Below, piece after piece: positions 21,585 to 59,119 of a stretch of DNA of 64,000 nucleotides. The notes under the pieces are model-generated. The model searched no databases and had not been told where the DNA came from. It saw nothing but the letters and a program-made list of their open reading frames with translations. Where the stretch lies: contig CANEYR010000004.1 of the NCBI GenBank assembly GCA_947444055.1, positions 39,820 to 103,819 on the forward strand, read 5' to 3'. Made by a program: the position numbers and the translations under genes. The first letter of the stretch is position 1. Each line of letters begins with the position of its first letter. The DNA comes from Planctomycetota bacterium (lineage in GTDB: Bacteria; Planctomycetota; UBA1135; UBA2386).

Positions 21585-23068
21585 GGCGTAAGCGCCCGGT
21601 CTACCCACGGAGGCGGTTACAGCCGATGAGGTTCGTGGCGGGGCGACGTGCGATCAGCCGACGACGGCAACGCGCGCGGCCTTCCACAGCCGCGGCGTAA
21701 GCGCGGCCGGTGCCTCGCCAGCCGCCAAGCGCTGGAGCACGTCCTTGAGGTACGCCCATGGCTCGATGCCAAGCAGACCGCAGGTGCCGACGAGCGAGTA
21801 GATCACCGCTGCGCGCTGGCCGCCTGCCTTGGAGCCAGCGAACATCCAGTTCTTGCGGCCCACGGCGACGCCGCGCATCTGACGCTCAACGCGGTTGTTG
21901 TCGATCGCGAGGCAGCCGTCTTCGAGGTACCGGTTCAGTGGGTCCCACTGGCGGAGCGTGTAGCCGATGGCATCACCCATCGGACTCTTGGGTAGCACGG
22001 TCTGCTTGAGCGCGACGAGCCACGGCTTCATCGACTCGAGTAGAGGCTTGGCCTCGTTTTGGCGCAGGTCGCGACGCTCCGAGAAGTCGAGACCAAGCTC
22101 CTTCGCCTGGCGCTCGATCTCGTAGAGCCGGCGAATCGCGGTCATCGAGTATTCGGCGTTCACCTTGTCGGCACTCAGCGCCTTGAAGAAGCGACGACGC
22201 GCGTGCGCCCAGCAACCGACCTCGACAATGCGACCGGTAGTGAAGAGGACTTCGTAGCCCGAGTAGGCATCCGCCTGCAGGTAGCCGCGGTAGTCGCCGA
22301 GGAAAGACCGCGGACCTTCGCGTCCGCGTCCGACCGTGAAGTCGAACACGACTTCGTCGCGGTCGCCGACATAGGCCCACAAGAAGCTGCGTCGGCTGCC
22401 GCCTGGGACATCACCATCGATCATCGTGATGCCGGTGTCGTCGCCCTGCACGACTTTGGACTCGAGGATCGACGTCTTCGACGCCATCACCACTGCTAAC
22501 AGCATTCCGGCGGAGTCCTTGACCCAGTCACACATCGTCGACTCGGCGATCTCCACGCCGTGTCGCGCGAAGATGCAGCTCTGGCGGTAGAGCGGCAGGT
22601 GGTCTTTGTATTTGCCAACCAACACGTGGGCGAGCAGCCCCGCAGTGGCCATGCCTTTCTCGATCGGGTGGGGCGGCAACGCAGCCGTCGCCACGCCGGC
22701 TTCCTCGTGCTTCTTGCACGCATACTTCACGCGCACGGTCTCCAGCACCTTGAGCACAGCAGGCGCATAGTCGATGCGCTCGCTGACTTCTTCGCCGATC
22801 GGCTGCATGACTTCGTTGCAGCACGGGCAGCGGCGCTGGTCCTCGGGCAACTCGATCTTGGTGGTCTCGCGCGGCATCTCCTTCGAGATCCGTGTGGCAC
22901 CGCGCTTCTTCCGCTTGAAGGTGACGGTTTCGAGTTCGTCGTCCGGCGCCTCGTCGACGTACGGCGGCTTTGGCATCTCTGGCTCGATGCCAGGGAATGG
23001 CAGCTGCGGGTGCTTGTCATCGCCGCCACGCTCGCTCTTCCGGCCGAACAGTTGGTGCAGCAGATGCT

Positions 23069-24528
23069 GGCGCTTCAGGAAGTCGTGTGGGTCGCTGACG
23101 CATTGGCGGGGTAGAGGTCGAGGCCACCAAGATGGAACAGGATCGCATTGCGGAACCTGTCGCGGTTGCGGAAGCCACAGGCGTTGGACTTGATCTTCTG
23201 GATGCGCGCGTTGACGGACTCGGCGCCGGCATTCGTCGCCCGCAGCGCCATGCCGTTGACGATGCCGGGCAGATGTTCGCGGATGATGCGGGCGACGCGC
23301 TTGAGCGGATCGAGTCTGGAACGCATCGCCGCCGACGCCCATGCGAGCCACGCCGATGTTGCGACCGACCGCCGGACGTAGCGCCAGATGTTCGCCGCGG
23401 CTTCCTTGAGACCCCACGCGCGAACGGTCTTGAGGCTCATGCTGCGCAGCACGTCGAGCGTGTGGACCTGCGTTGGCGAGAGGTTGCGCGTGTTCGTCAG
23501 GAACACGAACCTGGCGCCGGTCAGCGAGAGGTCGCCTTCGGCAAGCAGCGCGCGGTGTTCGGTACGGCGGACCTTGTCGACGGCGTCGACAAGGTGCTTA
23601 ACGACGTGGAACTTGTCGAACGAGAGCTTGCGGTCGGCATCGGGGACGAACTGTCGCACCGAAGCGATGTAGGGCTTCCACATGTCCATGGACACGGCCT
23701 CGATCGTCGCCAAGTGCTCGGGGCGCTGGGCGACGAAGAACGCGTCGATGCTCTCTCGCTTGCGATCGTCAGCGACGTACAGGACTCGCGATCCCTCGTG
23801 GTTGGTCACCACGGTCACGTACTCGTGCCGGCGCTGGAAGGATGTCTCGTCGATGCCGAGGCGACGCAGGGCCTCAGGCTTGCGACGGGCAAGGCCACGC
23901 GCGACAGCGCGCTGTTGGATGCCATCGACTTCGTCCCACGACAGCCGCATCTGTTTCGCCACGGCCCTGATGGTCGCAAGGGACCGCAACCAGTCGATGA
24001 CGAATGCCTCCATCAGCGCCGTGAAGTTCGAGCCTGGCGCCGCCCACGGGACATTGATCTGCAGCACGCCGTGATCCGCGCAGCGAACCCGCGGGACGGG
24101 CGCGGTCAGGATGGTCTTGAATTGGCAGGTATCCAGATGGCGCCAGCTCCGCTCACGTGCGTCGTAACCCGCGCACCGCTTGCCGCACTCGGGGCACGCA
24201 AACTGAGCATCGGCCCTCGGCTCGACCTTCACGCGGATCTCGCCTCCGCCTGAGTCCAGTTGCACATCGACGACGCGCCATGGGTCCGTGAGGCCGAGGA
24301 TGCGGGCATAGAGGTCGCGGTCTTGCATCCCGCCAAGCTACTCCGCGTGCCCACGCAGGGCCCGTCGTCGCCGCCCCGTAGTTCCGTCGCCATCAGCGTC
24401 GGCCACACCCAAGTGGCGCAGCGAATGGCCGACGCTGATGGCGACGGAACGGAGGGGTGGCGTGCTGCCCCCGCTAGTTCCCGAGTCAGAGGCCGAGGTC
24501 GCCTACCCACACGACTTCCTGAAGACCC
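23069..24528 (-). mobile_element. ISL3-family insertion sequence (1460 bp) nested in IS66 tnpC
   Basis: Imperfect terminal IRs: ggcgcttcaggaagtcgtgtgggt at 23069, against the reverse complement of the right end, gggtcttcaggaagtcgtgtgggt. The 20-bp core is perfect. Perfect 8-bp target duplication cagatgct at 23061-23068 and 24529-24536. Confidence 0.9.
23075..24328 (-). CDS. ISL3-family transposase
   Basis: 417 aa. N-terminal zinc ribbon CPECG...C, GIDETSFQRRHEYVTVV, MDMWKPY and GAESVNARIQKIKSNACGFRNRDRFRNAILF are typical ISL3 DDE transposase motifs. Confidence 0.9.
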   Translation of the reverse strand: MQDRDLYARILGLTDPWRVVDVQLDSGGGEIRVKVEPRADAQFACPECGKRCAGYDARERSWRHLDTCQFKTILTAPVPRVRCADHGVLQINVPWAAPGSNFTALMEAFVIDWLRSLATIRAVAKQMRLSWDEVDGIQQRAVARGLARRKPEALRRLGIDETSFQRRHEYVTVVTNHEGSRVLYVADDRKRESIDAFFVAQRPEHLATIEAVSMDMWKPYIASVRQFVPDADRKLSFDKFHVVKHLVDAVDKVRRTEHRALLAEGDLSLTGARFVFLTNTRNLSPTQVHTLDVLRSMSLKTVRAWGLKEAAANIWRYVRRSVATSAWLAWASAAMRSRLDPLKRVARIIREHLPGIVNGMALRATNAGAESVNARIQKIKSNACGFRNRDRFRNAILFHLGGLDLYPANASATHTTS

Positions 24529-24675
24529 CAGATGCTTTACCTGCTTCTCAAGCTCGACGTTCTTCGCGGCGAGATCGACGACGCGAGACCGCAGCGTTGC
24601 CATCTCGTCGTTGTTGTCTGCGATCACCGTCACATTGCTCCATACGCACGAACAGTGCGCAGAGGGTTTTCTCTC

Positions 24676-25032
24676 TCACAAAATGCGCGAATACCAGCGT
24701 CGGCGTTTCGCGGTGCTCAAGTCGAGGCCGCCGAGCAGTGCTGCGAGATCGGATGCGTGCAGTTCGAGCTGCTTTGCATCGCTGCCTTCGGGCAATGGCC
24801 AGGCGAACGTGCCTTGCTTGAGTCGCTTGTGCAGCAGCCAGAAGCCCGTCCGTTCCCAATAGAGAATCTTGATCCGATCGCGGCGCCCGTTGCAGAACAC
24901 GAACAGGTGCCCGCTCAGAGGATCGTGTTCGAGCACCTGTTTGGTGATCGCCGAGAGACCATCGAGCGACTTGCGCATGTCGGTCGCGCCGCGCGCGAGA
25001 TAGATGCGTACCGATGTCGGCAGGCTCAGCAT
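24676..25032 (-). CDS. tnpB: IS66 Orf2 (TnpB)
   Basis: MLSLPTSVRIYLARGATDMRKSLDGLSAI...LFVFCNGRRDRIKILYWERTGFWLLHKRL. Confidence 0.9.
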   Translation of the reverse strand: MLSLPTSVRIYLARGATDMRKSLDGLSAITKQVLEHDPLSGHLFVFCNGRRDRIKILYWERTGFWLLHKRLKQGTFAWPLPEGSDAKQLELHASDLAALLGGLDLSTAKRRRWYSRIL

Positions 25033-25346
25033 CGCAGTGCACGGAGCAAACGGCAAAGCTCGGCCTCGTCGAAGCCTGACTGGATCTGCAACGTCATCGA
25101 GTCGTCGAGGCGCAGCTCAAATGGCGCAGTCGGTCCCGCGGCGCGAGAAGCGACCACTTGGTGCGCCACGACTTCGACCGGCACGAGGTCGGTTGAGCGC
25201 GTTGAGCCACGCCGCAACCGACTGCGCCACCAGTAAAGCGTTGTCAGCATGATCCCGTGCAACTCGGCGAACTCCAGCGCCGACAACCCACTCTTCTCCT
25301 GCGCCCAGATCACTGCTCGCCACTTCGCTTCGGTTGTCTTCGTCAT
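25026..25346 (-). CDS. tnpA: IS66 Orf1 (TnpA, HTH protein)
   Basis: 106 aa. SALEFAELHGIMLTTLYWWRSRL. Overlaps the tnpB start (ATGCTGA). Confidence 0.8.
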   Translation of the reverse strand: MTKTTEAKWRAVIWAQEKSGLSALEFAELHGIMLTTLYWWRSRLRRGSTRSTDLVPVEVVAHQVVASRAAGPTAPFELRLDDSMTLQIQSGFDEAELCRLLRALRC

Positions 25347-25415
25347 GCCAGTCAGGGTGCCGACGGCGCGAGGTCCAACCAGATGGGTCTACCGGTTGCT
25401 TACTTTGTGACCACC

Positions 25416-38368: not shown

Positions 38369-40504
38369 TCAGAAGTGATTGACGAAGCTGCGCACGCCGT
38401 TGCTGGTGCTGGCGCCGAACGCGTTCAGCAGCCCAGGTGCTGTGAAGGCGGCGGCGGTGGCGAAGACTTCGGTGCCAGAGCCGACGCCGGCCGGAATCTG
38501 AAAGCTCGTGGTCTGGGTCGCGCTGGTGCCGACGAACGCATAGGTGACGTCGAGGGTGCCGACGTAGAACGAGCACAGCGGCATGCCGAGGTACGCGAGC
38601 GAGGTGCCGGCCAAGTCAGGGGTCAGACTGACGATGGTGACACCAAAGTAGGTGCCGCTGCTTGGGCTCGCCTCTGGGATGTTGTCGATCGTGTAGGTGA
38701 CCAGCGTGCCGTTGCTCGGCGTCGACACGGGTGCGGGCGAAGCGCTCAACAGCAAGGAATCGCAACCAGCGCCGTAGCTGGTGTGGGCGGCGGCTGGCAG
38801 GCATTCGGTCGCGAACGCACCTTGGCTTAGGTTCCAATAGGTTCCGGTCGGCGTCGTCTCGAGGCGCAGGGCGCGCACCATGTAGGTGGCAAAGCCAACC
38901 AATGGGGCCGGATCGGTGAAGGCGGTAGCCGCCACCGCCGACGGCGTGAGTCGGGTGAACGGGCCGGTTGGCGAAGCGCTGCGATAGACGTGGTAGCCCG
39001 CGACCGCATCCAAGGATGGCATCCAGGTGATGTTCGCTTGTGGCCAGACATCGACGATCGCGACCGCCGTCGCCGGCGCGATCACATGTTGGCGCAGGGT
39101 CGGATCGCCCATCAACGCCACGTGGATGAAGCGCCCGCCGTAGCCACCCATGCTGGTGTCGTTCTGGCTCAGCTTGGCACAGGCGCCGATCGATTCACCA
39201 AACGCCATCGAGTGGAACGACCAGTGCGGGCGACCGGCCCAGGCGTTGGCCAGGGTCCAGCCCGAGCACAGGGGCGCTCGCAGGAAGCTGTTGCCGACGT
39301 CCCAGTCGCCGAAGTAACTGCCGAACAACATCGTGAACACGCTGCGATTGCTGCTCGTTGCGAAGTCCGTGGTCGAGCCGATGCCGCCAGCGCTCGTGTA
39401 GCTGCCGCCGCCACATCCGTACGACCAGACGTAGCCGTTGCCGGTCGGCGTGTTGAGCGTCGTGAAGTAGTCCGCGGCGGTGACGTTGGTTGGTCCGACC
39501 AGCGAAGAGAAGTTGCGCCACCCCGACGCCGCGAAGGCCTCGCCCGAAAACCAGCCGAAGTTGTCGTCGATGACGGCGCGCTGGTCGGCCGCGAACACCT
39601 TCTGGCGGTAGTCGTGATTCTTGTCGAGGTACTGCTGCAGCAAGACGTCTTCACTGGCGGCGAAGGCCGACATGTTGGCGAGGTCGACGCGGCCGACGGC
39701 GAGATCGACGTCGCTCGGGATGATCGTCTGGTCGAACTTGCCATCGCCGGGAATGTTCCGGTTCTCTGGGCGCGACGCGGAGGTGGTGTTGACCGAGGTG
39801 TCGGTCCACGGGCCGTTGAGTTCGCCGTAGTAGAGGTCGGCGGGCCAAGCGCCTTGGTGATCGGGGTGGCCATCGGGTGCCAGCTGGCCCGAATACGGAA
39901 CCGGCACGTGTCCGAGCAAGAACACGGCGCGCGCTTGCAGCGGATTGGCGGCGACGTCGGCCGCGATCAGCGCCTTCACGCTGACGACGCTGGCGCTTGG
40001 CAGCACGTCGTGACGGAGCACGCGCCAGCCATCCCCGGTCATGTCGGTGATCAGGCGATCGAGGCGGCTGCCGAGCCCCGCGACTTTGGTGGCGTCGACG
40101 ATCAGGATCAGCGTGCCGCGGCTCTCGAAGGGCACGGCGTCGATGGCCGCGGTGAGCACGTTGCGACCGGCCACCGTGCCGAGCTTGTTGAACCAGTACT
40201 CGTAGCGCAGGCCAAGCAGCACGTTGTTGTCAGTCCACGTCGTCGCCGCCCCGCCGCCCGGCACCGTCACTGGCGTGCTCCACGCGGGGCTGCCAGGAAG
40301 TCGGCGATAGACCGAGTAGCTGGTGGCGGTGGGATCACTCGGCCAAGTGAATGTGATCGCGGGTGGGCTGCTGGCGACGGTGGCGCTCACCAGTACCGAG
40401 GCCTGTTGTGAGGTCTGCGCAAGCAGTTGGCCAGCCAGTGCAGCGAGCACAGCGATCGCAGTGGTGGTGCGCGCTGACGAGAGGAATCGTGACAAGTGGA
40501 GCAT
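38369..40504 (-). CDS. Large secreted hypothetical protein (signal peptide, FN3-like domain, shared C-terminal module)
   Basis: Signal peptide MLHLSRFL...ALAGQLLAQ. FN3-like segment PPAITFTWPSDPTATSYSVYRR...RYEYWF. The C-terminal 140 aa resemble the C-termini of the proteins at 54197..56140 and 56342..59119. Confidence 0.75.
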   Translation of the reverse strand: MLHLSRFLSSARTTTAIAVLAALAGQLLAQTSQQASVLVSATVASSPPAITFTWPSDPTATSYSVYRRLPGSPAWSTPVTVPGGGAATTWTDNNVLLGLRYEYWFNKLGTVAGRNVLTAAIDAVPFESRGTLILIVDATKVAGLGSRLDRLITDMTGDGWRVLRHDVLPSASVVSVKALIAADVAANPLQARAVFLLGHVPVPYSGQLAPDGHPDHQGAWPADLYYGELNGPWTDTSVNTTSASRPENRNIPGDGKFDQTIIPSDVDLAVGRVDLANMSAFAASEDVLLQQYLDKNHDYRQKVFAADQRAVIDDNFGWFSGEAFAASGWRNFSSLVGPTNVTAADYFTTLNTPTGNGYVWSYGCGGGSYTSAGGIGSTTDFATSSNRSVFTMLFGSYFGDWDVGNSFLRAPLCSGWTLANAWAGRPHWSFHSMAFGESIGACAKLSQNDTSMGGYGGRFIHVALMGDPTLRQHVIAPATAVAIVDVWPQANITWMPSLDAVAGYHVYRSASPTGPFTRLTPSAVAATAFTDPAPLVGFATYMVRALRLETTPTGTYWNLSQGAFATECLPAAAHTSYGAGCDSLLLSASPAPVSTPSNGTLVTYTIDNIPEASPSSGTYFGVTIVSLTPDLAGTSLAYLGMPLCSFYVGTLDVTYAFVGTSATQTTSFQIPAGVGSGTEVFATAAAFTAPGLLNAFGASTSNGVRSFVNHF

Positions 40505-40548: not shown

Positions 40549-41598
40549 TCATGCAAACACGTCCGCGAGTGACTTGGCGTCGAGCACACGATCGATCCAG
40601 GTGTCGAGTTGTGGTTGGCCCGCGGACTGCACGCGCTCGGCGATCTCCTTGGGCAATGGACCAAACCGCTTCGTCAGTTGGCGCAAGAGAACGTGCAACT
40701 GCCCTTCGCTACGCCCTTCGCGGCGTCCTTCGCTACGCCCTTCGCTACGCCCTTCGCGGCGTCCTTCGCTACGCCCTTCGCTACGCCCAAGGTCGCGACT
40801 CTCCAGTCGAATGCGTTGTCCAGTCGTCATCTTGAGGCCTTCTGGGTGATTGAGGTTCTTCGACAAAGCCATGTGTACTTGGTCCTCGGTGAGGTCGCTG
40901 TTGTCGACAAGATACCAGCCGATTGCGTCCAGCGAGACTTCAGGCAGAGGCGGTCCTTCGGATCGTTCTACCGCTTGCACTAGTTCGCCCCAGGAGTCGA
41001 TGGCTTCGAGCAGTTGGGCTGCATCGCAGTGCGTGACGGCGAACAGCGCGCGAATGGTCAGTCGTACCAGCGGCGAGACCTTCGCCTGTGCCCGCGTCGA
41101 TGGCTGCTGGCCGAGGTCGACGAGGATGGCCGGCAGCCGCGGGGCAAAGCGATCGAAGGGGGTCGTGGTCTCGCTGTGTTGGTGGTGGGTCAGGGGCGCC
41201 TGCCCGTGGTACGCGATGATCGGGACAACTGACGGCAGCGGTCCCTTGCGGCTGCGTTGCAACACATGCCGAAGGTGAACGACGTAGCGCAGCGTCTGGG
41301 CCAGCGCGTAACGCAACTGACCGCTCTTGTGCTCGATGATGAACCAGACCAGCTCGTCGGAATCGACGCGCTTGGCCACAAACACTAGGTCCGCGAAGTG
41401 CGACCGCAGGCGCACTCCGGGGATGCGTTCTTGCGCCGCGGCGAAGGTGCTCCAGTCGATCGCGTTGCGCACGCGCTTTGGCAGTACAGACTTGATCCAG
41501 GTGGCAGTGTGAATGGCGTGGCGGAAGGTGAAGTGAAACAGTTGGTCATGGTTGCTCGGCAAGCAGTGCCTCCACTGCCTGTGGAATTTCGAGGCCAA
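40549..41598 (-). CDS. Rpn/YhgA-like (PD-(D/E)XK) recombination-promoting nuclease family protein
   Basis: N-terminal HDQLFHFTF...LP, core ADLVF...IIEHKS...YHG. C-terminal part EGRxEG...LLRQLTKRFGPLPKEIAERVQSAG.PQLDTWIDRVLDAKSLADVF, as in Rpn C-terminal domains. TTG start uncertain. Confidence 0.8.
   Translation of the reverse strand: MASKFHRQWRHCLPSNHDQLFHFTFRHAIHTATWIKSVLPKRVRNAIDWSTFAAAQERIPGVRLRSHFADLVFVAKRVDSDELVWFIIEHKSGQLRYALAQTLRYVVHLRHVLQRSRKGPLPSVVPIIAYHGQAPLTHHQHSETTTPFDRFAPRLPAILVDLGQQPSTRAQAKVSPLVRLTIRALFAVTHCDAAQLLEAIDSWGELVQAVERSEGPPLPEVSLDAIGWYLVDNSDLTEDQVHMALSKNLNHPEGLKMTTGQRIRLESRDLGRSEGRSEGRREGRSEGRSEGRREGRSEGQLHVLLRQLTKRFGPLPKEIAERVQSAGQPQLDTWIDRVLDAKSLADVFA
40703..40786 (-). 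repeat. In-frame 12-bp tandem repeat x7 (two 36-bp super-units) inside the Rpn-like gene
   Basis: Units ccttcgctacgc / ccttcgcggcgt, read directly. They encode (GRSEGRSEGRRE)x2. Confidence 0.95.
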
Positions 41599-44259: not shown

Positions 44260-44973
44260 TCAGGATGTTCGGCAAGTGGCCGCGCAGGGCGTGACCAGCT
44301 GCGGGCAAGAGCCAGAAGTCCTTGCGTGCGTGAGGTTGGCAAAGAAGCGCTGGCTCAGCGCCGCGGGAACGATCTCGTCGGCGGCACCATGCACGACCAT
44401 CACCGGCATCGGCAAGCGCTGCGGCAGGGTCGCTTCGTCGTGCTGCGCGGCGTCGGCCAAGACGTTCTCTTCGACCAAGAACGCTTCGCCGGTGATGGTG
44501 CGCAAGCAGCCGGCTGCATCCATGTGTTGGCGCATGTGCGCGACGTAACCAAACGCCGGTGCCAGCAGCAGCAGACCACGAACGAGGGCCGGCCGCTCGG
44601 CGGCGGCGAACGCGCCGATCAGCGCGCCGAGGCTCCAACCCACCAACAGCGCTGGGCCCGTGCGTTCGAGCACGGTGATCGTGTCCGCAACCAAGTCCGA
44701 TGTGGTGACGACGCCGAGCGTGCCGCTGCTGGCGCCGTGGCCGCGAAAATCAAAGCGGGCGGCGGCGCGGCCACCGGCCTGCGCGTGTTCGAACACCACA
44801 CTGCTTTGCTCGCCATTGCGGGACGCCCCAAAGCCATGCAAGTACACGTAGGCGGGGGCACAGCCGGGCAGCAGGTCGGTGACCAAGCGATGTCCGGGGG
44901 CTGGCTCGAGCATCACGGTCGGGATCGAGGCCATGCGCGCGCCGCATGGTAGGTGCGGCCGCAAGACGGTCAA
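44260..44973 (-). CDS. Alpha/beta hydrolase
   Basis: YLHGFGAS, nucleophile elbow GWSLGA, VMVVHGAADEIVP. Confidence 0.8.
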   Translation of the reverse strand: MTVLRPHLPCGARMASIPTVMLEPAPGHRLVTDLLPGCAPAYVYLHGFGASRNGEQSSVVFEHAQAGGRAAARFDFRGHGASSGTLGVVTTSDLVADTITVLERTGPALLVGWSLGALIGAFAAAERPALVRGLLLLAPAFGYVAHMRQHMDAAGCLRTITGEAFLVEENVLADAAQHDEATLPQRLPMPVMVVHGAADEIVPAALSQRFFANLTHARTSGSCPQLVTPCAATCRTS

Positions 44974-45038
44974 GGCGCGCCGCGAAGTGCACCAAGTGCA
45001 CGCTGGCCTCCGTGCCGTCGATCGCCGATACCACGCGC

Positions 45039-45293
45039 ATGGACATTACGATCTTCCACTGAACTTCCTGAGGCTTCGGCCCACGCGCAGCGGGTCTCGC
45101 TGCGCACATCGAAGACGCCCTCGGCGTCACCGTGAAGCGAGTCGCCGGCAAGTCCGGACAATTCGACGTCGTGGTCGACGGCAAGGTCATTGCCAGCCGC
45201 GGCGGCAGCATGCTGAAACGCATTCTCGGCGGTGGCTGGCCTGATCCCGAGGAAGTGATCCGCCTGCTCGAGCAGTTGCCGAAGTCGAAGTGA
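45039..45293 (+). CDS. Rdx (SelW/SelT/SelH)-family selenoprotein candidate with a U-x-x-U motif (two in-frame TGA)
   Basis: MDITIFH[TGA]TS[TGA]GFGPRAAGLAAHIEDALGVTVKRVAGKSGQFDVVVDGKVIASRGG...WPDPEEVIRLLEQL. The TGA codons are at 45060-62 and 45069-71, otherwise the frame is open to the TGA at 45291-93. A SECIS-like hairpin lies downstream. Confidence 0.7.
45074..45114 (+). promoter_or_regulatory. Bacterial SECIS-like stem-loop
   Basis: Upper stem GCGCAGCG (45085-92) / CGCTGCGC (45098-105), loop GGTCT. Lower stem CTTCG (45074-78) / CGAAG (45110-114). It starts 3 nt after the second TGA. Confidence 0.65.
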
Positions 45294-45323
45294 GCGCCGT
45301 TCCCCATTCGTGACCCGACGTCC

Positions 45324-45959
45324 GTGCCGCTCGTTCCGCTCGAACTGCTGCTCGATGCCTCCCCGCTGCCGCCCAAGGTGACGGCGCTGCTCGCCGACGC
45401 CGCCGTGCGCATCGATGCGTACTTTGCCAACCGGGCGGCTGGCACCGACGGCTTTGTGCCGTGCGACCACGAATTGGTCTACCGGGCTCTGCAGTCGCTG
45501 CGCGCCGATGCCTCCGTGGGGCGGCGATGGTGTGAGTGGGGCAGCGGCTTTGGCGTGGTCGCCGGCCTCGCCGCGTTGTTGGGCTTCGACGCCTGCGGCA
45601 TCGAAGTGGACGGGACGCTGGTCACTGCCTCGCGCGAGCTGCTGGCGGCCCACGCCTTGCGCGTCGAGATCTGGCCCGGCAGTTTCGTGCCCGATGCGTA
45701 TGCGGCGAGCGAACGGCTGTCGGATCTGGAGACGCGCACCGTGTTGTCGCAGGGTGATGCCTATGGCGACATGGAACGCGACATCGACGACTTCGACGTC
45801 ATCTATGCCTATCCGTGGCCGACTGAGGAGGAGCAGTACTGCGACTTGTTCCGTCGCCATGCCGATGTCGGCTCGGTGTTGTTGACGTTCTCGCGGACCG
45901 AAGGCGTGCGCGCCTATCGCAAGGTGGCGGGCCCTGGTCGCCGCCACCGATGCCCGTGA
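45324..45959 (+). CDS. Putative class I SAM-dependent methyltransferase
   Basis: WCEWGSGFGVVAGLAALLGFDACGIEVD is a motif I-like glycine-rich loop followed by an acidic residue. GTG start. Confidence 0.55.
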   Translation: MPLVPLELLLDASPLPPKVTALLADAAVRIDAYFANRAAGTDGFVPCDHELVYRALQSLRADASVGRRWCEWGSGFGVVAGLAALLGFDACGIEVDGTLVTASRELLAAHALRVEIWPGSFVPDAYAASERLSDLETRTVLSQGDAYGDMERDIDDFDVIYAYPWPTEEEQYCDLFRRHADVGSVLLTFSRTEGVRAYRKVAGPGRRHRCP

Positions 45960-47146: not shown

Positions 47147-48460
47147 CTACGCGTCGCGCAGCAAGCGCACCGAGGTCGCTTGGAAGCGCGTCTCGGGCGG
47201 CCAGAAGTTGCGGTAGGCGAGGCGTGCTTGCGATCGTGGCGTCGCGAACGAACCACCGCGCAGGACGCGCTGGTTGTCCATGAACTTGCCGTTGTACTCC
47301 ATCAAGGCGCCCGGGAACGGCCGGTAGCCTGGGTACGGCTCGTAGTGGCTCTGCGTCCATTCCCACGCATCGCCCAGCATCTGCCGCAGACCGCGCCGGT
47401 CGCTCGTCGGCAAGACGTCGAGCGCGTTCGCACCGAGTTCGCCGTTGGTTCCGTCATCGAGCAAGTTGGCCGGCTCGCGCTCGGCACCGCTGTGTCGCGC
47501 CGCGTGCTCCCACTCACTCTCGCGCGGCAAGCGAGCGTGCTGCCAGGCCGAGAACTGCTCCCCATACCAGCGCGCGAAGGCGTCGGCTTCGTAGAACGAC
47601 ACATGGCACACGGGGTCGTCAGGGTGCACCGCGACGAGGCCGCGCAGGGTGAAGCGATGCCAGTGCTCGTCGATGCGTTGCCAGTACAGCGGCGCTTGCC
47701 AACCGCGTTGCTGCACTGCTTGCCAACCGTTCGAGAGCCACAACAAGGGTCGCTGGTAACCGCCGTCGTCGACGAACGCCTGCCACTCCGCGTTGGTGAT
47801 GAGGCGATCGCCGAGGGCGAAATCGCCGACGAGCGTCGCATGCGCGGGCAGTTCGTTATCCCAGCAAAAGCCTTCACCCTGGTGACCTAGCTGGCTCGAA
47901 GCCTTGGCGAACGCAATCGGCCGCAGCGCTGCGGGCGAAGGCTCGTGGGTTCGCTTGGCTGATGCCGCCGCATAGGCTTGCCGCAGTTCCGTTGGTGCCG
48001 ACCAGCGAATGTGCAGGATCTCGGTCAAGAACAGTTCCTGGTGCTGCTGCTCGTGCTCGATGCCGATCGTCACGATCTTCGCAATTTCGGCGAGGTCGTG
48101 GTCGGTGGCGACAGCGAGCAGTTCGAGCATCGCTGCGTCGATCGTGCGTCGGTACGACCACACGGAGTCCGTCGATGGCTGCGCCACGAGCAGACGCTGG
48201 GCGCGCGGCAGGCGCGGACCGAGGCCTTCGTAGTAGCTGTTGAAGGTGAAGTCGAAGCCAGCAAAACCGTCGACGTCGAGGCGCTGGGGGCGCAGCACGT
48301 TGGCGAGGAAGAACCAACTGGTGTGACCGAGGGTCCAGTACGGCGGGCTGACGTCGGGCATCGACTGGCAGCGGAAGTCCTCGGGCAGCAGCGCTCGCAT
48401 CAGCCGTTCGGTCGTGCTGCGCACGGTGCGAAAGCGGGCGATCAGGTCCTCGCGGTTCAT
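47147..48460 (-). CDS. egtB: EgtB-like sulfoxide synthase (DinB_2 plus FGE-sulfatase domains)
   Basis: YWTLGHTSWFF, IGIEHEQQHQELFLTEILH, GDAWEWTQSHYEPYPGYRP...RVLRGGSFATP. Confidence 0.85.
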   Translation of the reverse strand: MNREDLIARFRTVRSTTERLMRALLPEDFRCQSMPDVSPPYWTLGHTSWFFLANVLRPQRLDVDGFAGFDFTFNSYYEGLGPRLPRAQRLLVAQPSTDSVWSYRRTIDAAMLELLAVATDHDLAEIAKIVTIGIEHEQQHQELFLTEILHIRWSAPTELRQAYAAASAKRTHEPSPAALRPIAFAKASSQLGHQGEGFCWDNELPAHATLVGDFALGDRLITNAEWQAFVDDGGYQRPLLWLSNGWQAVQQRGWQAPLYWQRIDEHWHRFTLRGLVAVHPDDPVCHVSFYEADAFARWYGEQFSAWQHARLPRESEWEHAARHSGAEREPANLLDDGTNGELGANALDVLPTSDRRGLRQMLGDAWEWTQSHYEPYPGYRPFPGALMEYNGKFMDNQRVLRGGSFATPRSQARLAYRNFWPPETRFQATSVRLLRDA

Positions 48461-54196: not shown

Positions 54197-56140
54197 TCAA
54201 TTCAAGCCGACGGTGTGCTTGATCGCGTTGCTCGAGACCGTGATCAGGTCCGGCCCACCGAACAATCCATCGAGCGCCACGAACTGGGCGAAGAACTGCG
54301 AGCCTTCGAAGCCGTGCGGGACGACGAACGGCACCGTGCCGACCGCGGTCGAGGCCGGCAGGATGAACACCTGCCACAGCAGGGCGCCGGTGGTCGTGCT
54401 CAGCATGCAGCCGGGGGCGGTGATGGTCGGGAACTGCAGACCAGGTTGGGTGCCGCCGACGTCGAGCAGTTGGGCGCCGAGGATCGTGCCCACTGGCACG
54501 TTGGTCGCGTTCCACGTCATCGTTTGGCCGCCATACATGCGACCGCCATATTGCAGGCCGCCGAGGTTGGGGGTGGCGAGGGCGACTTGGCCAACATTGC
54601 CTTGACCACCTTCAGGCTTGGTCGAGAACGGCACTTCGATGGACAGGTCGCGGCTTTGCGGGTTGGCGGCGTTGGGGCCGACGCCAGCGAGCGTGCGACC
54701 TGGCGAGAAGCCGACAATCGTCGAAAAGCATTCGGCGGTTACCGTCGACGCGGTCGCAAAGGCTGGCACGTTGCCGTAGCGGAACTGCACGATGCCGGTG
54801 CCTTCATGCAGCACCATCTGGAAGGTCCAGTTGGCGTGCCCTTGCACACCGCCACCGGTGACGACGTTGAACTCACTGACATCCCACCAGGTGACGTAGC
54901 ACACGGCGTTGCCGGCCCCGCCGGACGTGTCGGTCTTGACGTGCATGCCACACAGCGAGTTGAGGCCGAAGTTGCGCAGCATGTTGAGGTCCTTCCAGAA
55001 GATCGCCAACCGGGCGCCGCTGTAGGTGGGCAACGCGCTGGCCGGGTCGCCGAGCAGACGGGCCGCCAAGGCTGCGAACGCGCTATTGGTCATCGTCGCG
55101 TCGAGCCAAACGAAGCCATTCGTGCTGGCCACGATGGTCGAGGTGGTGCCGCCTGGATAGTTGAACGGGAAGCCCAGTGCGTGAGTGAAGATCCCATCGT
55201 CGGCGGTTGCATCCGGCGTCGCGTTGACCTTGGTCAGGTCGACTGGTGGTGCGCCACCGGTGACGGTGTAGAGGGTCGGCGCGCTGGGGCTATTGGGCGT
55301 CATCGTCAAGCCGCCGCCGAGGTCGAACGCCTGGCCGTTGAGGAACCCTTGGTAGAAGCTCGAAGCCGAGCCACCGCACGCACCGCCGTAGAACTCATTG
55401 CGGGCTGGGATGATGGTGGCATGGCCACCGGCGCCGAGGAACTCGACGCCGACAAGTGGCGGGAGCACATTCAGGGTGCCGAGCGTGGCTGCCGACGCGC
55501 TCGCCGTGTTGCCCATGCCGCGGATCTGGGCGGTGGTGCCGGTGGTATTCGAAAACCCAGCCAGCCCAAGTGGTGCGGAGTTGGCCGGCGCCAATGGCAT
55601 GTCGATGTCGATCAGCAGGTTCGGTTGCGGTCCCGTCGGGTCGTAGAGCACCGCCAAGTTGAGCGCGATGACGTCGATCTCGATGGTCCAATTGTTGGGC
55701 ACGCTGCCCGCAGCGGGAGCAACGGTGACGGTCGTCGTGCCGAGCGTGCTCATCGTCGTGGAGTTGGGCAGCGCCGGCGTGCGATTGTCCTGGAAGGTCG
55801 CGCTCATCGAAGCGGCCGTCAGTGTTGTCGTGCCGATCTCGACCGTGACGCCGGTGTAGACCTGACCACCCAGGTTAATCTCACCATCTTCGGTGCGGAA
55901 CTTGATCTTCGAGATCAACACGGGGCCCGCGACGTTGCCCTTGCCCGTGAAGTGGCTGCCTTCATAGAGAACCTGGAAGCGGCCGGGGCCATTGCGCCAC
56001 CACAGCGTCGAGCCACTGTTGCCGGTCTGTGCTGGGTTCTCAGAGAGATGGTGGTAGTCGGGCAGCGTGATTTGCTGGGCGACGAGGCCGCTCGCGAAGA
56101 GCGCGAGTGACAGGAGGGTACGGGTCGTTTGCGAGGCCAT
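54197..56140 (-). CDS. Large secreted hypothetical protein with a NIDO-like domain and the shared C-terminal module
   Basis: Signal peptide MASQTTRTLLSLALFASGLVAQ. LAIFWKDLN...VCYVTWWDV...NWTFQMVLHEGTGIVQFRYGNV resembles the NIDO pattern (PFW.D...TW..V...NTFQ.VL). ATG at 56140 lies inside track ORF 54197..56434. Confidence 0.7.
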   Translation of the reverse strand: MASQTTRTLLSLALFASGLVAQQITLPDYHHLSENPAQTGNSGSTLWWRNGPGRFQVLYEGSHFTGKGNVAGPVLISKIKFRTEDGEINLGGQVYTGVTVEIGTTTLTAASMSATFQDNRTPALPNSTTMSTLGTTTVTVAPAAGSVPNNWTIEIDVIALNLAVLYDPTGPQPNLLIDIDMPLAPANSAPLGLAGFSNTTGTTAQIRGMGNTASASAATLGTLNVLPPLVGVEFLGAGGHATIIPARNEFYGGACGGSASSFYQGFLNGQAFDLGGGLTMTPNSPSAPTLYTVTGGAPPVDLTKVNATPDATADDGIFTHALGFPFNYPGGTTSTIVASTNGFVWLDATMTNSAFAALAARLLGDPASALPTYSGARLAIFWKDLNMLRNFGLNSLCGMHVKTDTSGGAGNAVCYVTWWDVSEFNVVTGGGVQGHANWTFQMVLHEGTGIVQFRYGNVPAFATASTVTAECFSTIVGFSPGRTLAGVGPNAANPQSRDLSIEVPFSTKPEGGQGNVGQVALATPNLGGLQYGGRMYGGQTMTWNATNVPVGTILGAQLLDVGGTQPGLQFPTITAPGCMLSTTTGALLWQVFILPASTAVGTVPFVVPHGFEGSQFFAQFVALDGLFGGPDLITVSSNAIKHTVGLN

Positions 56141-56341
56141 GGTGGAGCAACGAGGGAAGGTCTGACGGCACGAACGTCGTGAAGCCAGACGAGGCAGGCT
56201 ACCCGAAGTGATCGCGCTGACTAGGGTGCCCACATACCCAATCGCCGGGTCTGCGGGCGAACGCATTCGCGATCGGTTTGACAGCCCGTCGCCTGGGTGC
56301 CAACGTGCCCCCCTCCTCGTCCCTGATTGCGGGTTGCTCCC

Positions 56342-59119
56342 ATGGCTTTGATTCATTGCACGGCAGTCGCCAGTGTTTTGGCGTCTGTTCTCTCGGCCCA
56401 ATCGTTCGTCAACTTCGAGAGCGGGCCGGTGCATCCGCTGCGGTTGTCACCCGATGGCACACGATTGTTTGTCGCCGATACCACAGGCGGGCGGCTGTGC
56501 GTGTTCGACCTCGGCAATCCCTCGGCGCCATTCTTGATCGCTGAGATTCCGGTCGGGCTGGACCCGGTCTCGGTGCAACCGCGAACGCGCGACGAAGTTT
56601 GGGTGACCAACTTGTTGTCCGACAGCGTCAGCATCGTCAGCGTCGCCGCTGGTCGCGTCATCGATACGTTGCGTGTCGTCGATGAACCGAGCGACGTGGT
56701 GTTCGCTGGCGGCAAGGCGTTTGTGACCGCGGCCACGGTGGATGCCGTGAAGGTGTTTGACGCCACGACGCGCGCCTCGCTCGGCTCGGTCGCGATCTTC
56801 GGCAAGGATCCGCGCGCCTTGGCGGTGAGCCCCGATGGCTCGCGCGTGTACGCCGTCGTGCAGCGTTCGGGCAATGGCACGACGATTCTGCCGTCGAACG
56901 TGGCGCCGCCACAGCCGCCGCCAACCAACATCACCTTGCCCGCGGCACCGGATGCCGGCTTGATCGTGCGCGCCGATGACCCGACGTGGGCCGCGAACAT
57001 CCCCTACACGCTGCCCGATCACGATGTCGTGCAGATCGATGTCGCCACGTTGGCGGTGACCCGCTCCTTCGTGGCGGTTGGCACCACCAACACGTGCCTC
57101 GCGGTGCATCCGACGAGCGGTGATCTCTGGGTGGCGAACACCGAGGCGCGCAATCTCATTCGCTTCGAGCCAGTGTTGCGCGGCCATGCGATCGACAGCC
57201 GACTGACGCGCATCACCACCGGCGTCGTGCCGTCGGTGACGCCGTTCGATCTCAACGTGGGCGTGAACTACAACGTGTTGCCGAACACGGCGGCGCTGGC
57301 CACGGCCCTGAGTGAACCGTTCGGTGTTGCCATCGATGCGGCGGCGGGCCGCGTCTACGTCGCCGCCCATGGCTCGGATCGCGTCGGCGTCGTCGACTTG
57401 GCTGGCGTCGTGCAAGCTCGCATCGAGATCGGGGTGACGCCGGGGGCCTTGGTCAACACGCGGCAGAAGCGCGGCCCGCGCGCGCTGGCGTTGCACCCGA
57501 CGGCGGGTCGGCTCTACGTGCAGAATCGTCTCAGCGACACGCTGTGCGTGGTCGACACGGCAACCAACGCGGTGCTCAGCGAGCAGCCGATTGCGAGCTG
57601 GGACCCGATGCCGACGACCATGCGCCAGGGCCGAAAGTTTCTCTACGACGCGAAGTTGTCTGGCAACGGCACCATGTCGTGTGCCGCGTGCCACATCGAC
57701 GGCGACCTCGACGGCATCGCGTGGGACCTCGGCGATCCGGCGGGCAGCTTGCAGAACCCGCCGTCGCAGCCCTTCCCGTTCAACATCGGCTTGGTGCCGT
57801 TCCATCCGATGAAGGGACCGATGACGACGCAGACGCTGCGTGGTCTGCAAGGCACCGGCAACCTGCACTGGCGCGGCGATCGCGCGACGTTCGCGGCGTT
57901 CAATGGCGCCTTCGCGTCGTTGTTGGGTGGCGCGCTGTTGTCGACGCCGGACATGACCGACTACGCGGCCTTCGCCAACGCGATCGTGTATCCGCCAAAC
58001 CCCATCCAACAGCTCAATCGCACCTACCGCTCGACGCCGGCGGCCAACAACGAAGCGGCGGGTCTGGTGCAGTTCAACCAGAACATCGTCACGTTCCCGA
58101 TCCCTGGCGGCGCCTCCTGTGCGACCTGCCACACGCTGCCGAGCGGCACCAATGGCTTCGCGATCCTGGCATCGGTGATCCAAGAACCGCAGCAGATGAA
58201 GGTGCCGCAGGTTCGCAACATGTACCGCAAGGGCGGTTTCGCCCGCACCGCCGCGCCGCAGAAGGCGGGCTTTGGGTTCACCCACGATGGCGCCCTGGAC
58301 ACGTTGGCTTCGTTCCTTGCCCAGCCGGTGTTTGGTAGCTGGCCAGCGGGCACGAAGGACGACTTGGTGTCGCTGTTGAATGCGTTCGACACGGGCACGG
58401 CACCGGCGGTCGGCTACCAGATTGCGCTGTCGCAGGGCAACGCGAGCAGCCCGCAGTTTGGCACTGACATGACGTTGGTGACGACGCGGGCGGTGGCCGG
58501 CGATCTCGACCTGACTGCGCACGGCCGGATCGATGGGCAGCTGCGCTTCCTGCTTTTCCAAACGGGCACCGCGACGTTCACCAGCGACCAGACCGGCGTT
58601 GGGCCGTTCTCGCAGGCGCAGCTGGTGAGCCGCGCTCTGGCTGGCAATGCCAACTTGACGTTCACCGCGGTGCCGCCGGGCAGTGGCAATCGCACCGCCC
58701 TCGATCGCGACCTCGATGGCACCAAGAACGGTGATGAGGCCGCGGTTGTCTATGGGGCGGCGACCCCCGGGTGCACTGGCGCGCCGCTGCTCGCTGCCAA
58801 CTCCGAGCCGCGGGTCGGCAATGCGCAGTTTGGGTTTGTGCTGACGGGCGCGCAGGCGAACACGTTCGGCCTCCTTGCCCTAGCACTCGGCCAGGCGTCG
58901 ATTCCAGTGCTCGGGGTCACGGTGTTGATCGACCCGCTGACGGCGGTGCCAATTGGGCTCGCCAGCGATGCCTTTGGCGGTGCCGTGCATGCCTTCGCCT
59001 TGCCGCCAAGTCCGGCGAACATTGGGCTTGGCATCACGTCGCAAGCCCTGTGGCTCGACCTGTGTGGCAGCGAGTGGTGGAGCAGCAGTGCGGGGCTGCA
59101 GTTCTTGGTCCGACCGTGA
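56342..59119 (+). CDS. Secreted beta-propeller / di-haem cytochrome c peroxidase-like fusion protein
   Basis: Signal peptide MALIHCTAVASVLASVLSAQS. YVTN-like repeats (LSPDGTRLFVAD, VSPDGSRVYAV, LHPTAGRLYVQN). Two haem motifs, CAACH (57680-94) and CATCH (58118-32), lie 146 aa apart. KVPQVRNM...FTHDGA. Ca-binding-like DRDLDGTKNGDE. Shared C-terminal module. Confidence 0.8.
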   Translation: MALIHCTAVASVLASVLSAQSFVNFESGPVHPLRLSPDGTRLFVADTTGGRLCVFDLGNPSAPFLIAEIPVGLDPVSVQPRTRDEVWVTNLLSDSVSIVSVAAGRVIDTLRVVDEPSDVVFAGGKAFVTAATVDAVKVFDATTRASLGSVAIFGKDPRALAVSPDGSRVYAVVQRSGNGTTILPSNVAPPQPPPTNITLPAAPDAGLIVRADDPTWAANIPYTLPDHDVVQIDVATLAVTRSFVAVGTTNTCLAVHPTSGDLWVANTEARNLIRFEPVLRGHAIDSRLTRITTGVVPSVTPFDLNVGVNYNVLPNTAALATALSEPFGVAIDAAAGRVYVAAHGSDRVGVVDLAGVVQARIEIGVTPGALVNTRQKRGPRALALHPTAGRLYVQNRLSDTLCVVDTATNAVLSEQPIASWDPMPTTMRQGRKFLYDAKLSGNGTMSCAACHIDGDLDGIAWDLGDPAGSLQNPPSQPFPFNIGLVPFHPMKGPMTTQTLRGLQGTGNLHWRGDRATFAAFNGAFASLLGGALLSTPDMTDYAAFANAIVYPPNPIQQLNRTYRSTPAANNEAAGLVQFNQNIVTFPIPGGASCATCHTLPSGTNGFAILASVIQEPQQMKVPQVRNMYRKGGFARTAAPQKAGFGFTHDGALDTLASFLAQPVFGSWPAGTKDDLVSLLNAFDTGTAPAVGYQIALSQGNASSPQFGTDMTLVTTRAVAGDLDLTAHGRIDGQLRFLLFQTGTATFTSDQTGVGPFSQAQLVSRALAGNANLTFTAVPPGSGNRTALDRDLDGTKNGDEAAVVYGAATPGCTGAPLLAANSEPRVGNAQFGFVLTGAQANTFGLLALALGQASIPVLGVTVLIDPLTAVPIGLASDAFGGAVHAFALPPSPANIGLGITSQALWLDLCGSEWWSSSAGLQFLVRP

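Follow-up and report, generated by a model that had tools for sequence, protein, structure and literature searches.

Reading frame and annotation of the locus

The gene considered here lies in a 64,000-nucleotide stretch of a Planctomycetota contig (CANEYR010000004.1, assembly GCA_947444055.1, forward-strand positions 39,820 to 103,819). This whole stretch is referred to below as the window, and all positions are given in its coordinates unless stated otherwise. At 45039-45293 on the plus strand there is a short reading frame of the Rdx/SelW-like family carrying two in-frame TGA codons. A preliminary description of the window, made from its letters, had proposed a gene recoded at both codons with an adjacent hairpin resembling a selenocysteine insertion sequence (SECIS). 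We consider it very probable that the locus holds an Rdx selenoprotein gene with a genuine SECIS; how the first of the two UGAs is read is a matter of lesser confidence and is weighed below. The features on which the argument rests are as follows.

45039..45293, plus strand: full Rdx/SelW-like coding sequence, 84 codons and a TGA stop, with two in-frame UGAs (translation, Pfam Rdx, signature of GC content at third codon positions (GC3), orthologues)
45060..45062, plus strand: first in-frame UGA, at redox position 1 (codon alignment; the same TGA in two orthologous loci, L013 and L087)
45069..45071, plus strand: second in-frame UGA, at redox position 2, the family's conserved selenocysteine (Sec, U) codon (TGA in 41 of 43 aligned sequences)
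45085..45105, plus strand: putative SECIS core, consisting of the 8-bp upper stem (45085-92/45098-105) and, at 45093-97, the apical loop GGUCU (fold, covariation, RNAalifold, synonymous-site conservation)
45068..45124, plus strand: extended hairpin with two lower stems (45068-73/45119-24 and 45074-79/45109-14) (minimum free energy (MFE) structure)
45132..45293, plus strand: truncated open reading frame (ORF) of 53 residues from a GTG at 45132, identical to the database protein P0003 (ORF listing, protein search)

Translation from the ATG at 45039 reproduced the proposed frame, MDITIFH-TGA-TS-TGA-GFGPRAAGLAAHIEDALGVTVKRVAGKSGQFDVVVDGKVIASRGGSMLKRILGGGWPDPEEVIRLLEQLPKSK-stop in conceptual form, with internal TGAs at 45060-62 and 45069-71 and a terminal TGA at 45291-93. 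The coding composition of the frame (GC3 0.79; 0.47 at second codon positions, GC2) assigns it to the plus strand, and the long antisense ORFs over the locus were discarded by the gene caller based on GC3 and GC2. In the mechanical list of ORFs this frame is represented by nothing other than the 53-residue tail from GTG 45132, and the public annotation (P0003) consists of the same tail. TGA is an ordinary stop in the window, as had been noted before, and the main one, terminating 39 of its 54 predicted genes; the two internal codons therefore point to local recoding and not to a variant genetic code.

Family assignment and fold

For profile searches of the window protein, U was replaced by C. 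The protein scored 40.8 bits against Pfam Rdx (PF10262; gathering score 22.6, E = 2.6e-10) over residues 3-78 of 84, which supports the family assignment originally made from the layout of the motif. Sequence matches in the PDB were weak and of the right family, namely MIEN1 (2ljk), Atu0228 (2fa8) and SAV_2001 (3dex), with their CxxC motifs aligned. Residues 8 and 11, both encoded by UGA, align with the CxxC of 2fa8 and MIEN1 and with the CxxU of 80 orthologues, so that the two TGAs do fall exactly on the two redox positions, as had been claimed.

The fold was modelled with AlphaFold on a 72 %-identical homologue (P0001) as a stand-in for the window protein. The model (predicted local distance difference test score 83, predicted template-modelling score 0.74) comprises a strand at 3-7, a helix at 13-28, strands at 32-36, 42-46 and 49-53 and a helix at 70-81. 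This is a thioredoxin-like β-α-β-β-β-α arrangement in which the redox motif lies between β1 (3-7) and α1 (13-28). Its best 23 PDB matches were all SelW-related or Rdx proteins, with template-modelling scores of 0.7-0.8, among them 3dex, 2ojl, 2oka, 2fa8, 2obk and 2p0g as well as MIEN1 and mouse SelW, in agreement with the profile search. On profile and model evidence, 45039-45293 is predicted to encode an 84-residue Rdx/SelW-like protein of the thioredoxin fold.

Orthologues and the codons at the redox positions

About 88 distinct orthologues were examined, mostly from metagenome-assembled genomes (MAGs) of Planctomycetota. The protein search returned 52 clusters, nearly all of them fragments of 52-60 residues which start past the redox motif, as expected from a conserved in-frame stop. 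Essentially all public entries of the Planctomycetota Rdx subfamily (P0003-P0052) are fragments of 52-68 residues, usually named 'hypothetical protein'. This subfamily is systematically mis-annotated by standard gene calling.

A scan of genomes gave 80 loci, most of them in Planctomycetota MAGs and the more distant ones in Acidobacteriota, Myxococcota and others. In all 80 the frame is open from ATG to the normal stop except for the TGA at redox position 2, and 79 carry TGC or TGT at position 1. The 15 further metagenomic loci are all CxxU. Across the whole set position 1 is a Cys codon (TGC/TGT) in about 85 of 88 orthologues, and TGA stands there in three, namely the window, L013 and L087. 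At position 2 the two sequences that depart from TGA have CGA and GGA. No other premature stop or frameshift was encountered among the roughly 88 orthologues; an alignment of orthologous loci, suggested beforehand as a check for decay, thus revealed none.

Two proteins appear at full length in the database because their Sec codon has changed to CGA (Arg; L001, 281-544) or GGA (Gly; L002-L004). The Gly form was found in three separate samples (L002, L003 and L004), and the hairpin with its GGTCT loop is retained in the L001 and L002 (1681-1929) forms despite the loss of the Sec codon. These Arg and Gly forms are either recent inactivations or single-Cys variants.

Structure and selection of the hairpin

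The upper stem pairs GCGCAGCG (45085-92) with CGCTGCGC (45098-105) around the loop GGTCT. Beneath it in the MFE structure there is a lower stem CUUCGG/UCGAAG, and the lowest stem takes in the second UGA. Covariation was assessed in a gap-free alignment of 42 sequences in codon register, in which the upper stem is paired in 95.7 % of cells. Double compensatory changes occur at 4 of the 8 upper-stem pairs, all at synonymous third positions, for example CGC…GCG against CGG/AGG…GCC (11 sequences) and GCG…GCC against GCA…GCT or GCC…GCG. Alignment pair 30-48 is CG in 25 sequences and GC in 11, pair 33-45 is GC, AU or CG, and pair 36-42 is GC or AU. The resulting covariation score of 0.186 was reached in none of 500 shuffles, and slid registers scored at most 0.071. 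The same upper stem was recovered by RNAalifold without guidance. One compensatory A-U pair (GCA…GCT against GCG…GCC) is private to the window.

The codons at the apex are frozen: Ala18 is encoded by GCG and Leu20 by CTC, each in 41 of 43 sequences, and Gly19 by GGT in all 28 of 28, although GGT is unusual where the genome is rich in GC. The third-base entropy at the other invariant four-fold codons (G37, G40, V44, A52) is 1.3-1.7 bits. The apical loop of the family is (G/A)GUCU, with G or A at the first position, an invariant G at the second and U next in 40 of 42 sequences. The lower stems, including CTTCG/CGAAG, are paired in 72-81 % of cases across orthologues, with few compensatory changes. 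Judged by covariation, RNAalifold and the frozen synonymous sites, the hairpin is a real, selected RNA element, predicted to be of the SECIS type first suggested for it.

The consensus model of bacterial SECIS elements (Zhang & Gladyshev, in PMC13188914) has a loop of 3-9 nt, an upper stem of 4-16 bp, a G as the first or second base of the loop, with G or U usually coming next, a UGA-to-loop spacing of 16-37 nt and an MFE of -7.5 kcal/mol or lower. The Rdx hairpin has a loop of 5 nt, an upper stem of 8 bp and the G in place (GGUCU). The apical loop lies 21 nt from the UGA at 45069-71 and 30 nt from the UGA at 45060-62, and both distances are within the 16-37 nt range, as the preliminary description had stated. 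The MFE of the 30-nt core is -16.5 kcal/mol in the window, -12.5 in L013 and -16.1 in L087. For both UGAs the element agrees with every feature of the published model, and binding of SelB is predicted.

Recurrence of TGA at redox position 1

The second gene with a TGA at position 1, L013 (DASVAL010000139.1, a Planctomycetota MAG), reads MDITIQH-U-TA-U-GFGPRAAS… and is annotated solely as a 54-residue fragment (HEX6813777.1). The third, L087 (PVBE010794278.1), reads MQIKILH-U-TS-U-GYGQRAAS… and came from a targeted metagenome scan for UxxU plus hairpin; of the three matches of that scan, L085 and L086 were rejected as they are not Rdx genes. ORFs and hairpins are intact in the window, L013 and L087. 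The window and L013 are 74 % identical and both lie among CxxU sequences. None of the four flanking window genes adjoins the Rdx gene in any of 84 loci, and for want of shared synteny the flanks give no guide to the placing of the window with respect to L013. L087 is 49-51 % identical to the window or L013 and belongs to a distant clade, which indicates that the change from TGC to TGA arose at least twice.

There are 18 other single-step paths to a nonsense codon in the Rdx gene, and under random nonsense mutation the chance that two or three such events all strike the position-1 codon is about 3e-3 to 1.5e-4. This argues that the position-1 UGA may be tolerated because it is decoded. That the first UGA is translated appears probable to us, whereas the narrower proposition that both UGAs are read as Sec is somewhat less than an even bet.

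Proposed decoding of the two UGAs

The most likely outcome, in which we have moderate confidence, is a full-length product obtained by read-through of both UGAs with the help of one hairpin. In the family at large the UGA at position 2 would be recoded to Sec by SelB·Sec-tRNASec, with SelB tethered to the intragenic SECIS, to give a C-x-x-U active site; the upper stem starts 13 nt after this UGA. In the window gene, a change of one base in the position-1 Cys codon (TGC to TGA) would have converted this site to U-x-x-U. As the first UGA is 30 nt from the loop and hence inside the SECIS range, the same hairpin most likely serves both UGAs. SelB on the apical stem-loop would deliver its tRNA first with the UGA at 45060 in the A site and 25 nt between the first base of that codon and the hairpin beyond it, the lower stems being melted by the ribosome. 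Three codons on, at the UGA at 45069, SelB would deliver again, now with 16 nt to the hairpin. The additional 9 nt of linker could loop out, and a longer spacing would therefore be easier to accommodate physically than a shorter one. The product would contain a selenium redox pair capable of forming a diselenide, or a selenenylsulfide if Cys were inserted at the first UGA, in which case the protein would functionally be the usual C-x-x-U member of the family.

More tentatively, one SECIS may direct SelB-dependent insertion of Sec at two UGAs 9 nt apart, so that it would define a recoding window and not a single position. If both codons are so read, a possibility that we put at a little under one half, the gene would specify a U-x-x-U centre capable of forming a diselenide, the first in a SelW-like protein of bacteria. 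With the same reserve, the variant may have arisen at least twice since any Cys codon in the recoding window could become a decodable UGA.

It is unlikely, by comparison, that the first UGA is read as Cys, either through a selC*/tRNA-ReC-type tRNA that is charged with Cys and depends on SelB or through near-cognate read-through by tRNA-Cys or tRNA-Trp; in that case the finished SelW-like protein would have the usual C-x-x-U (or else W-x-x-U), and the TGA would be a silent-like variant. tRNAs of the selC*/tRNA-ReC-like kind insert Cys at SECIS-associated UGAs and are enriched in genomes with UxxU motifs (PMC13582414). Their genes occur in ~56 % of genomes with UxxU hydrogenases as against ~2 % of other Sec-type genomes, and one or both UGAs may then encode Cys (PMC13582414). 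Cys is moreover the ancestral residue at position 1, and the distance to the hairpin is greater by 9 nt for the first UGA than for the proven position of the family. However, the window contains no Sec- or ReC-type tRNA at all, so that there is no positive sign of Cys insertion for this genome, and a spacing of 30 nt is within the normal SECIS range for Sec.

Ranked next, and also unlikely, is the explanation that the first TGA is a true nonsense mutation, making the gene a recent null allele or pseudogene with a 7-residue peptide, or else an assembly or sequencing error in a gene that is really CxxU. The occurrence of the position-1 TGA in just 3 of ~88 orthologues would fit this, as would the metagenome-type source of the assembly with a single-base change, the strict spacing rule of E. 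coli, and the loss of the Sec codon to CGA and GGA in L001 and L002, which indicates that the active site does mutate in this family. On the other hand, the same codon has been struck in at least two distant lineages without other stops or frameshifts in the family, and in the window the invariant residues, the position of the stop and the hairpin with its private compensatory pair are all intact. That no recoded gene exists, the product being the annotated 53-residue ORF from GTG 45132 and the upstream similarity and hairpin incidental, is very improbable: gene callers and NCBI do annotate the short ORF alone, but the upstream 31 codons, which hold β1, the redox motif and α1, are conserved as protein in more than 80 loci, the Pfam alignment covers residues 3-78, and the hairpin covaries.

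Selenocysteine machinery and points of caution

Several observations weigh against read-through of both UGAs by one hairpin. The rarity of UxxU (3 of ~88) is as expected for a tolerated or slightly deleterious variant, and the C/A difference at 45062 is a single base known from the assembly alone. The minimal SECIS of E. coli follows its UGA at a distance of 11 nt (PMC8659212). In the window gene the upper stem has its base 13 nt past the Sec codon of the family and 22 nt past the first UGA, a distance at which decoding may be inefficient. No SECIS family was detected in Rfam at the gathering threshold for the window or at E up to 10 for 44900-45400, where chance matches alone (Prion_pknot, ncS037, isrD) were returned. 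Conservation and thermodynamics had both been named in advance as touchstones for the hairpin; the former held for the upper stem and was lower for the lower stems, and the latter did not hold, the single-sequence fold of 71 nt (-28.5 kcal/mol, z = -1.9) being unremarkable, so that the case for the hairpin rests on the comparative evidence. The protein marginally misses NCBIfam TIGR02174 (CXXU_selWTH; 33.2 against a cutoff of 34.2). It also scores 50.1 against a cutoff of 88 for NF041051 (SelTWH_Campy), and hence is not an equivalog of the Campylobacter type; the two scores point to a divergent subfamily. Finally, no selA, selB, selD or tRNA-Sec gene was found in the 64-kb window or the fetched flanks of the loci, in a search that compared about 30 window genes with the Pfam and NCBIfam profiles and covered the window and 60 loci with ARAGORN. 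Since the UGA and the SECIS are conserved throughout the family, we infer that the genome has the capacity to decode Sec (selABCD).

A scan of the window for in-frame TGAs with coding signal on both sides returned ordinary adjacent genes only. A second scan, for SECIS-like hairpins preceded by TGAs, recovered the Rdx hairpin and one other at 39492, which was rejected as a chance occurrence, as it is antisense to a solid gene of 711 residues. The scans for TGAs and SECIS-like hairpins gave no second selenoprotein candidate in the window. A gene of DinB_2 and FGE-sulfatase domains 2 kb from the Rdx gene (47147-48460, minus strand) was considered as the selenoneine synthase SenA and rejected (302 against a cutoff of 420); it matches the ergothioneine biosynthesis protein EgtB (TIGR03440, 474 bits against 360). 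EgtB is a low-molecular-weight thiol/redox function in the neighbourhood and is not syntenic with Rdx in other genomes.

Upstream motif and other features of the window

One further feature belongs to the Rdx gene.

45024..45030, plus strand: conserved motif, GCCGATA, 8 nt before the start codon (also seen ahead of the gene in about 21 of 27 orthologous loci)

The motif, GCCGATA(C/A/G), stands 6-9 nt before the start codon of the Rdx gene. About 21 of 27 Planctomycetota loci have it (the window, L002, L005-L020, L023, L024 and L027), although their flanking genes are otherwise unrelated. Often TTG or CTGG is found ~17 nt further upstream, and there is no Shine-Dalgarno sequence. The motif is not enriched across the window, with 4 matches against 3.7 expected. 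It looks like part of a -35/-10 promoter giving a leaderless mRNA whose 5' end would coincide with the ATG or adjoin it, or else like a regulatory site specific to this gene.

The stop TGA at 45291 is in frame with the next ORF (45291-45959, plus strand), 30 nt apart, which encodes a protein of 211 residues with weak similarity to PrmA-like methyltransferases. A role for this TGA as a third recoded UGA was considered and rejected, as orthologues end at the same place with various stops. This shared end point, together with the unrelated genes downstream in orthologues, led us to judge the continuity of frame with the 211-residue ORF as coincidental.

Elsewhere in the window, mobile elements occupy 21654-25388 (minus strand), just after the ribosomal-protein region, and comprise an IS66 transposase, TnpB (Orf2) and a third small ORF; a YhgA-like (Transposase_31) gene lies at 40549-41598 (minus strand). 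Two large genes, at 38369-40504 (minus strand, 711 residues) and 54197-56446 (minus strand, 745 residues), have a strong coding signature and no match in Pfam or NCBIfam.

Implications

Sec insertion in bacteria is taught as strictly position-dependent, each hairpin serving a single UGA that lies at a set distance from it. This rule of one hairpin and one UGA is challenged by the UxxU genes found in nature. The question whether one SECIS can serve two UGAs was raised in 2026, without a test, for large hydrogenases (PMC13582414). The Rdx gene of 84 codons offers a much simpler test case: its SECIS is well defined and covaries, CxxU sister genes exist in nature, and there may be no smaller natural system in which this question can be asked. 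With a UxxU Rdx protein the catalogued selenoproteins of prokaryotes would gain a further motif variant, and the whole Rdx subfamily is missed by standard annotation.

Comparison with known systems

The preliminary description took U-x-x-U to be characterised in eukaryotic SelL alone, and this is contradicted by bacterial families and by eukaryotic SELENOW. SelL is indeed a eukaryotic UxxU selenoprotein (Shchedrina et al. 2007, cited in PMC2398784). The motif also occurs in bacterial Prx-like proteins of the Global Ocean Sampling data (PMC2398784), in putative mercuric-reductase and FmdB-family bacterial selenoproteins (PMC13188914, PMC9312934), in 16 group-4 [NiFeSe] hydrogenases (PMC13582414) and in the SELENOW of amphioxus and Ostreococcus (PMC7539508). 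Reviews of 2022 and 2026 (PMC9312934, PMC13188914) catalogue the SELENOW-like proteins of bacteria (PF10262) as CxxU with one Sec, and no description of a bacterial Rdx protein with two Sec was found in the literature searched. The novel part is the occurrence of UxxU in a SelW-like protein of bacteria, a pairing absent from the 2026 catalogue.

With the bacterial SelW-like proteins the window gene shares the Pfam family, the fold, the place of the motif between β1 and α1, the Sec at the second position and a downstream, in-frame SECIS. What it adds is the UGA at position 1, and with it two predicted recoding events 9 nt apart under one hairpin. The eukaryotic proteins SelL and SELENOW have the U-x-x-U redox motif that is predicted for it, and SELENOW also belongs to the same protein family; the UxxU SELENOW of eukaryotes arose by a change from Cys to Sec at position 1 of CxxU (PMC7539508), as is proposed for the window gene. 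However, the eukaryotic SECIS lies in the 3' untranslated region and serves any in-frame UGA with no problem of spacing, whereas the bacterial SECIS is position-dependent. The bacterial Prx-like (UxxC/UxxU), mercuric-reductase and FmdB selenoproteins are, like the window gene, predicted two-Sec UxxU proteins of bacteria, but they belong to other protein families and are all metagenome predictions.

In comparison with the fdhF SECIS of E. coli, the Rdx element is likewise an intragenic hairpin directly 3' of a UGA; the lower stem takes in this UGA, and the loop contains GGUC. It differs in its upper stem, which has 8 bp without a bulged U and starts 13 nt and not 11 nt after the Sec codon. The group-4 [NiFeSe] hydrogenases offer a parallel on the side of decoding: both systems are bacterial, have two UGAs separated by two codons and keep the CxxU-type SECIS unchanged in the UxxU forms. 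Both are also sporadic and of repeated origin, and the hypothesis that a single SECIS serves two UGAs, put forward independently for the hydrogenases (PMC13582414), holds for either system. The hydrogenases are unrelated proteins, large and of many subunits, in which the residues are metal ligands and not a redox pair of the dithiol type, whereas the system in the window is one gene of 84 codons.

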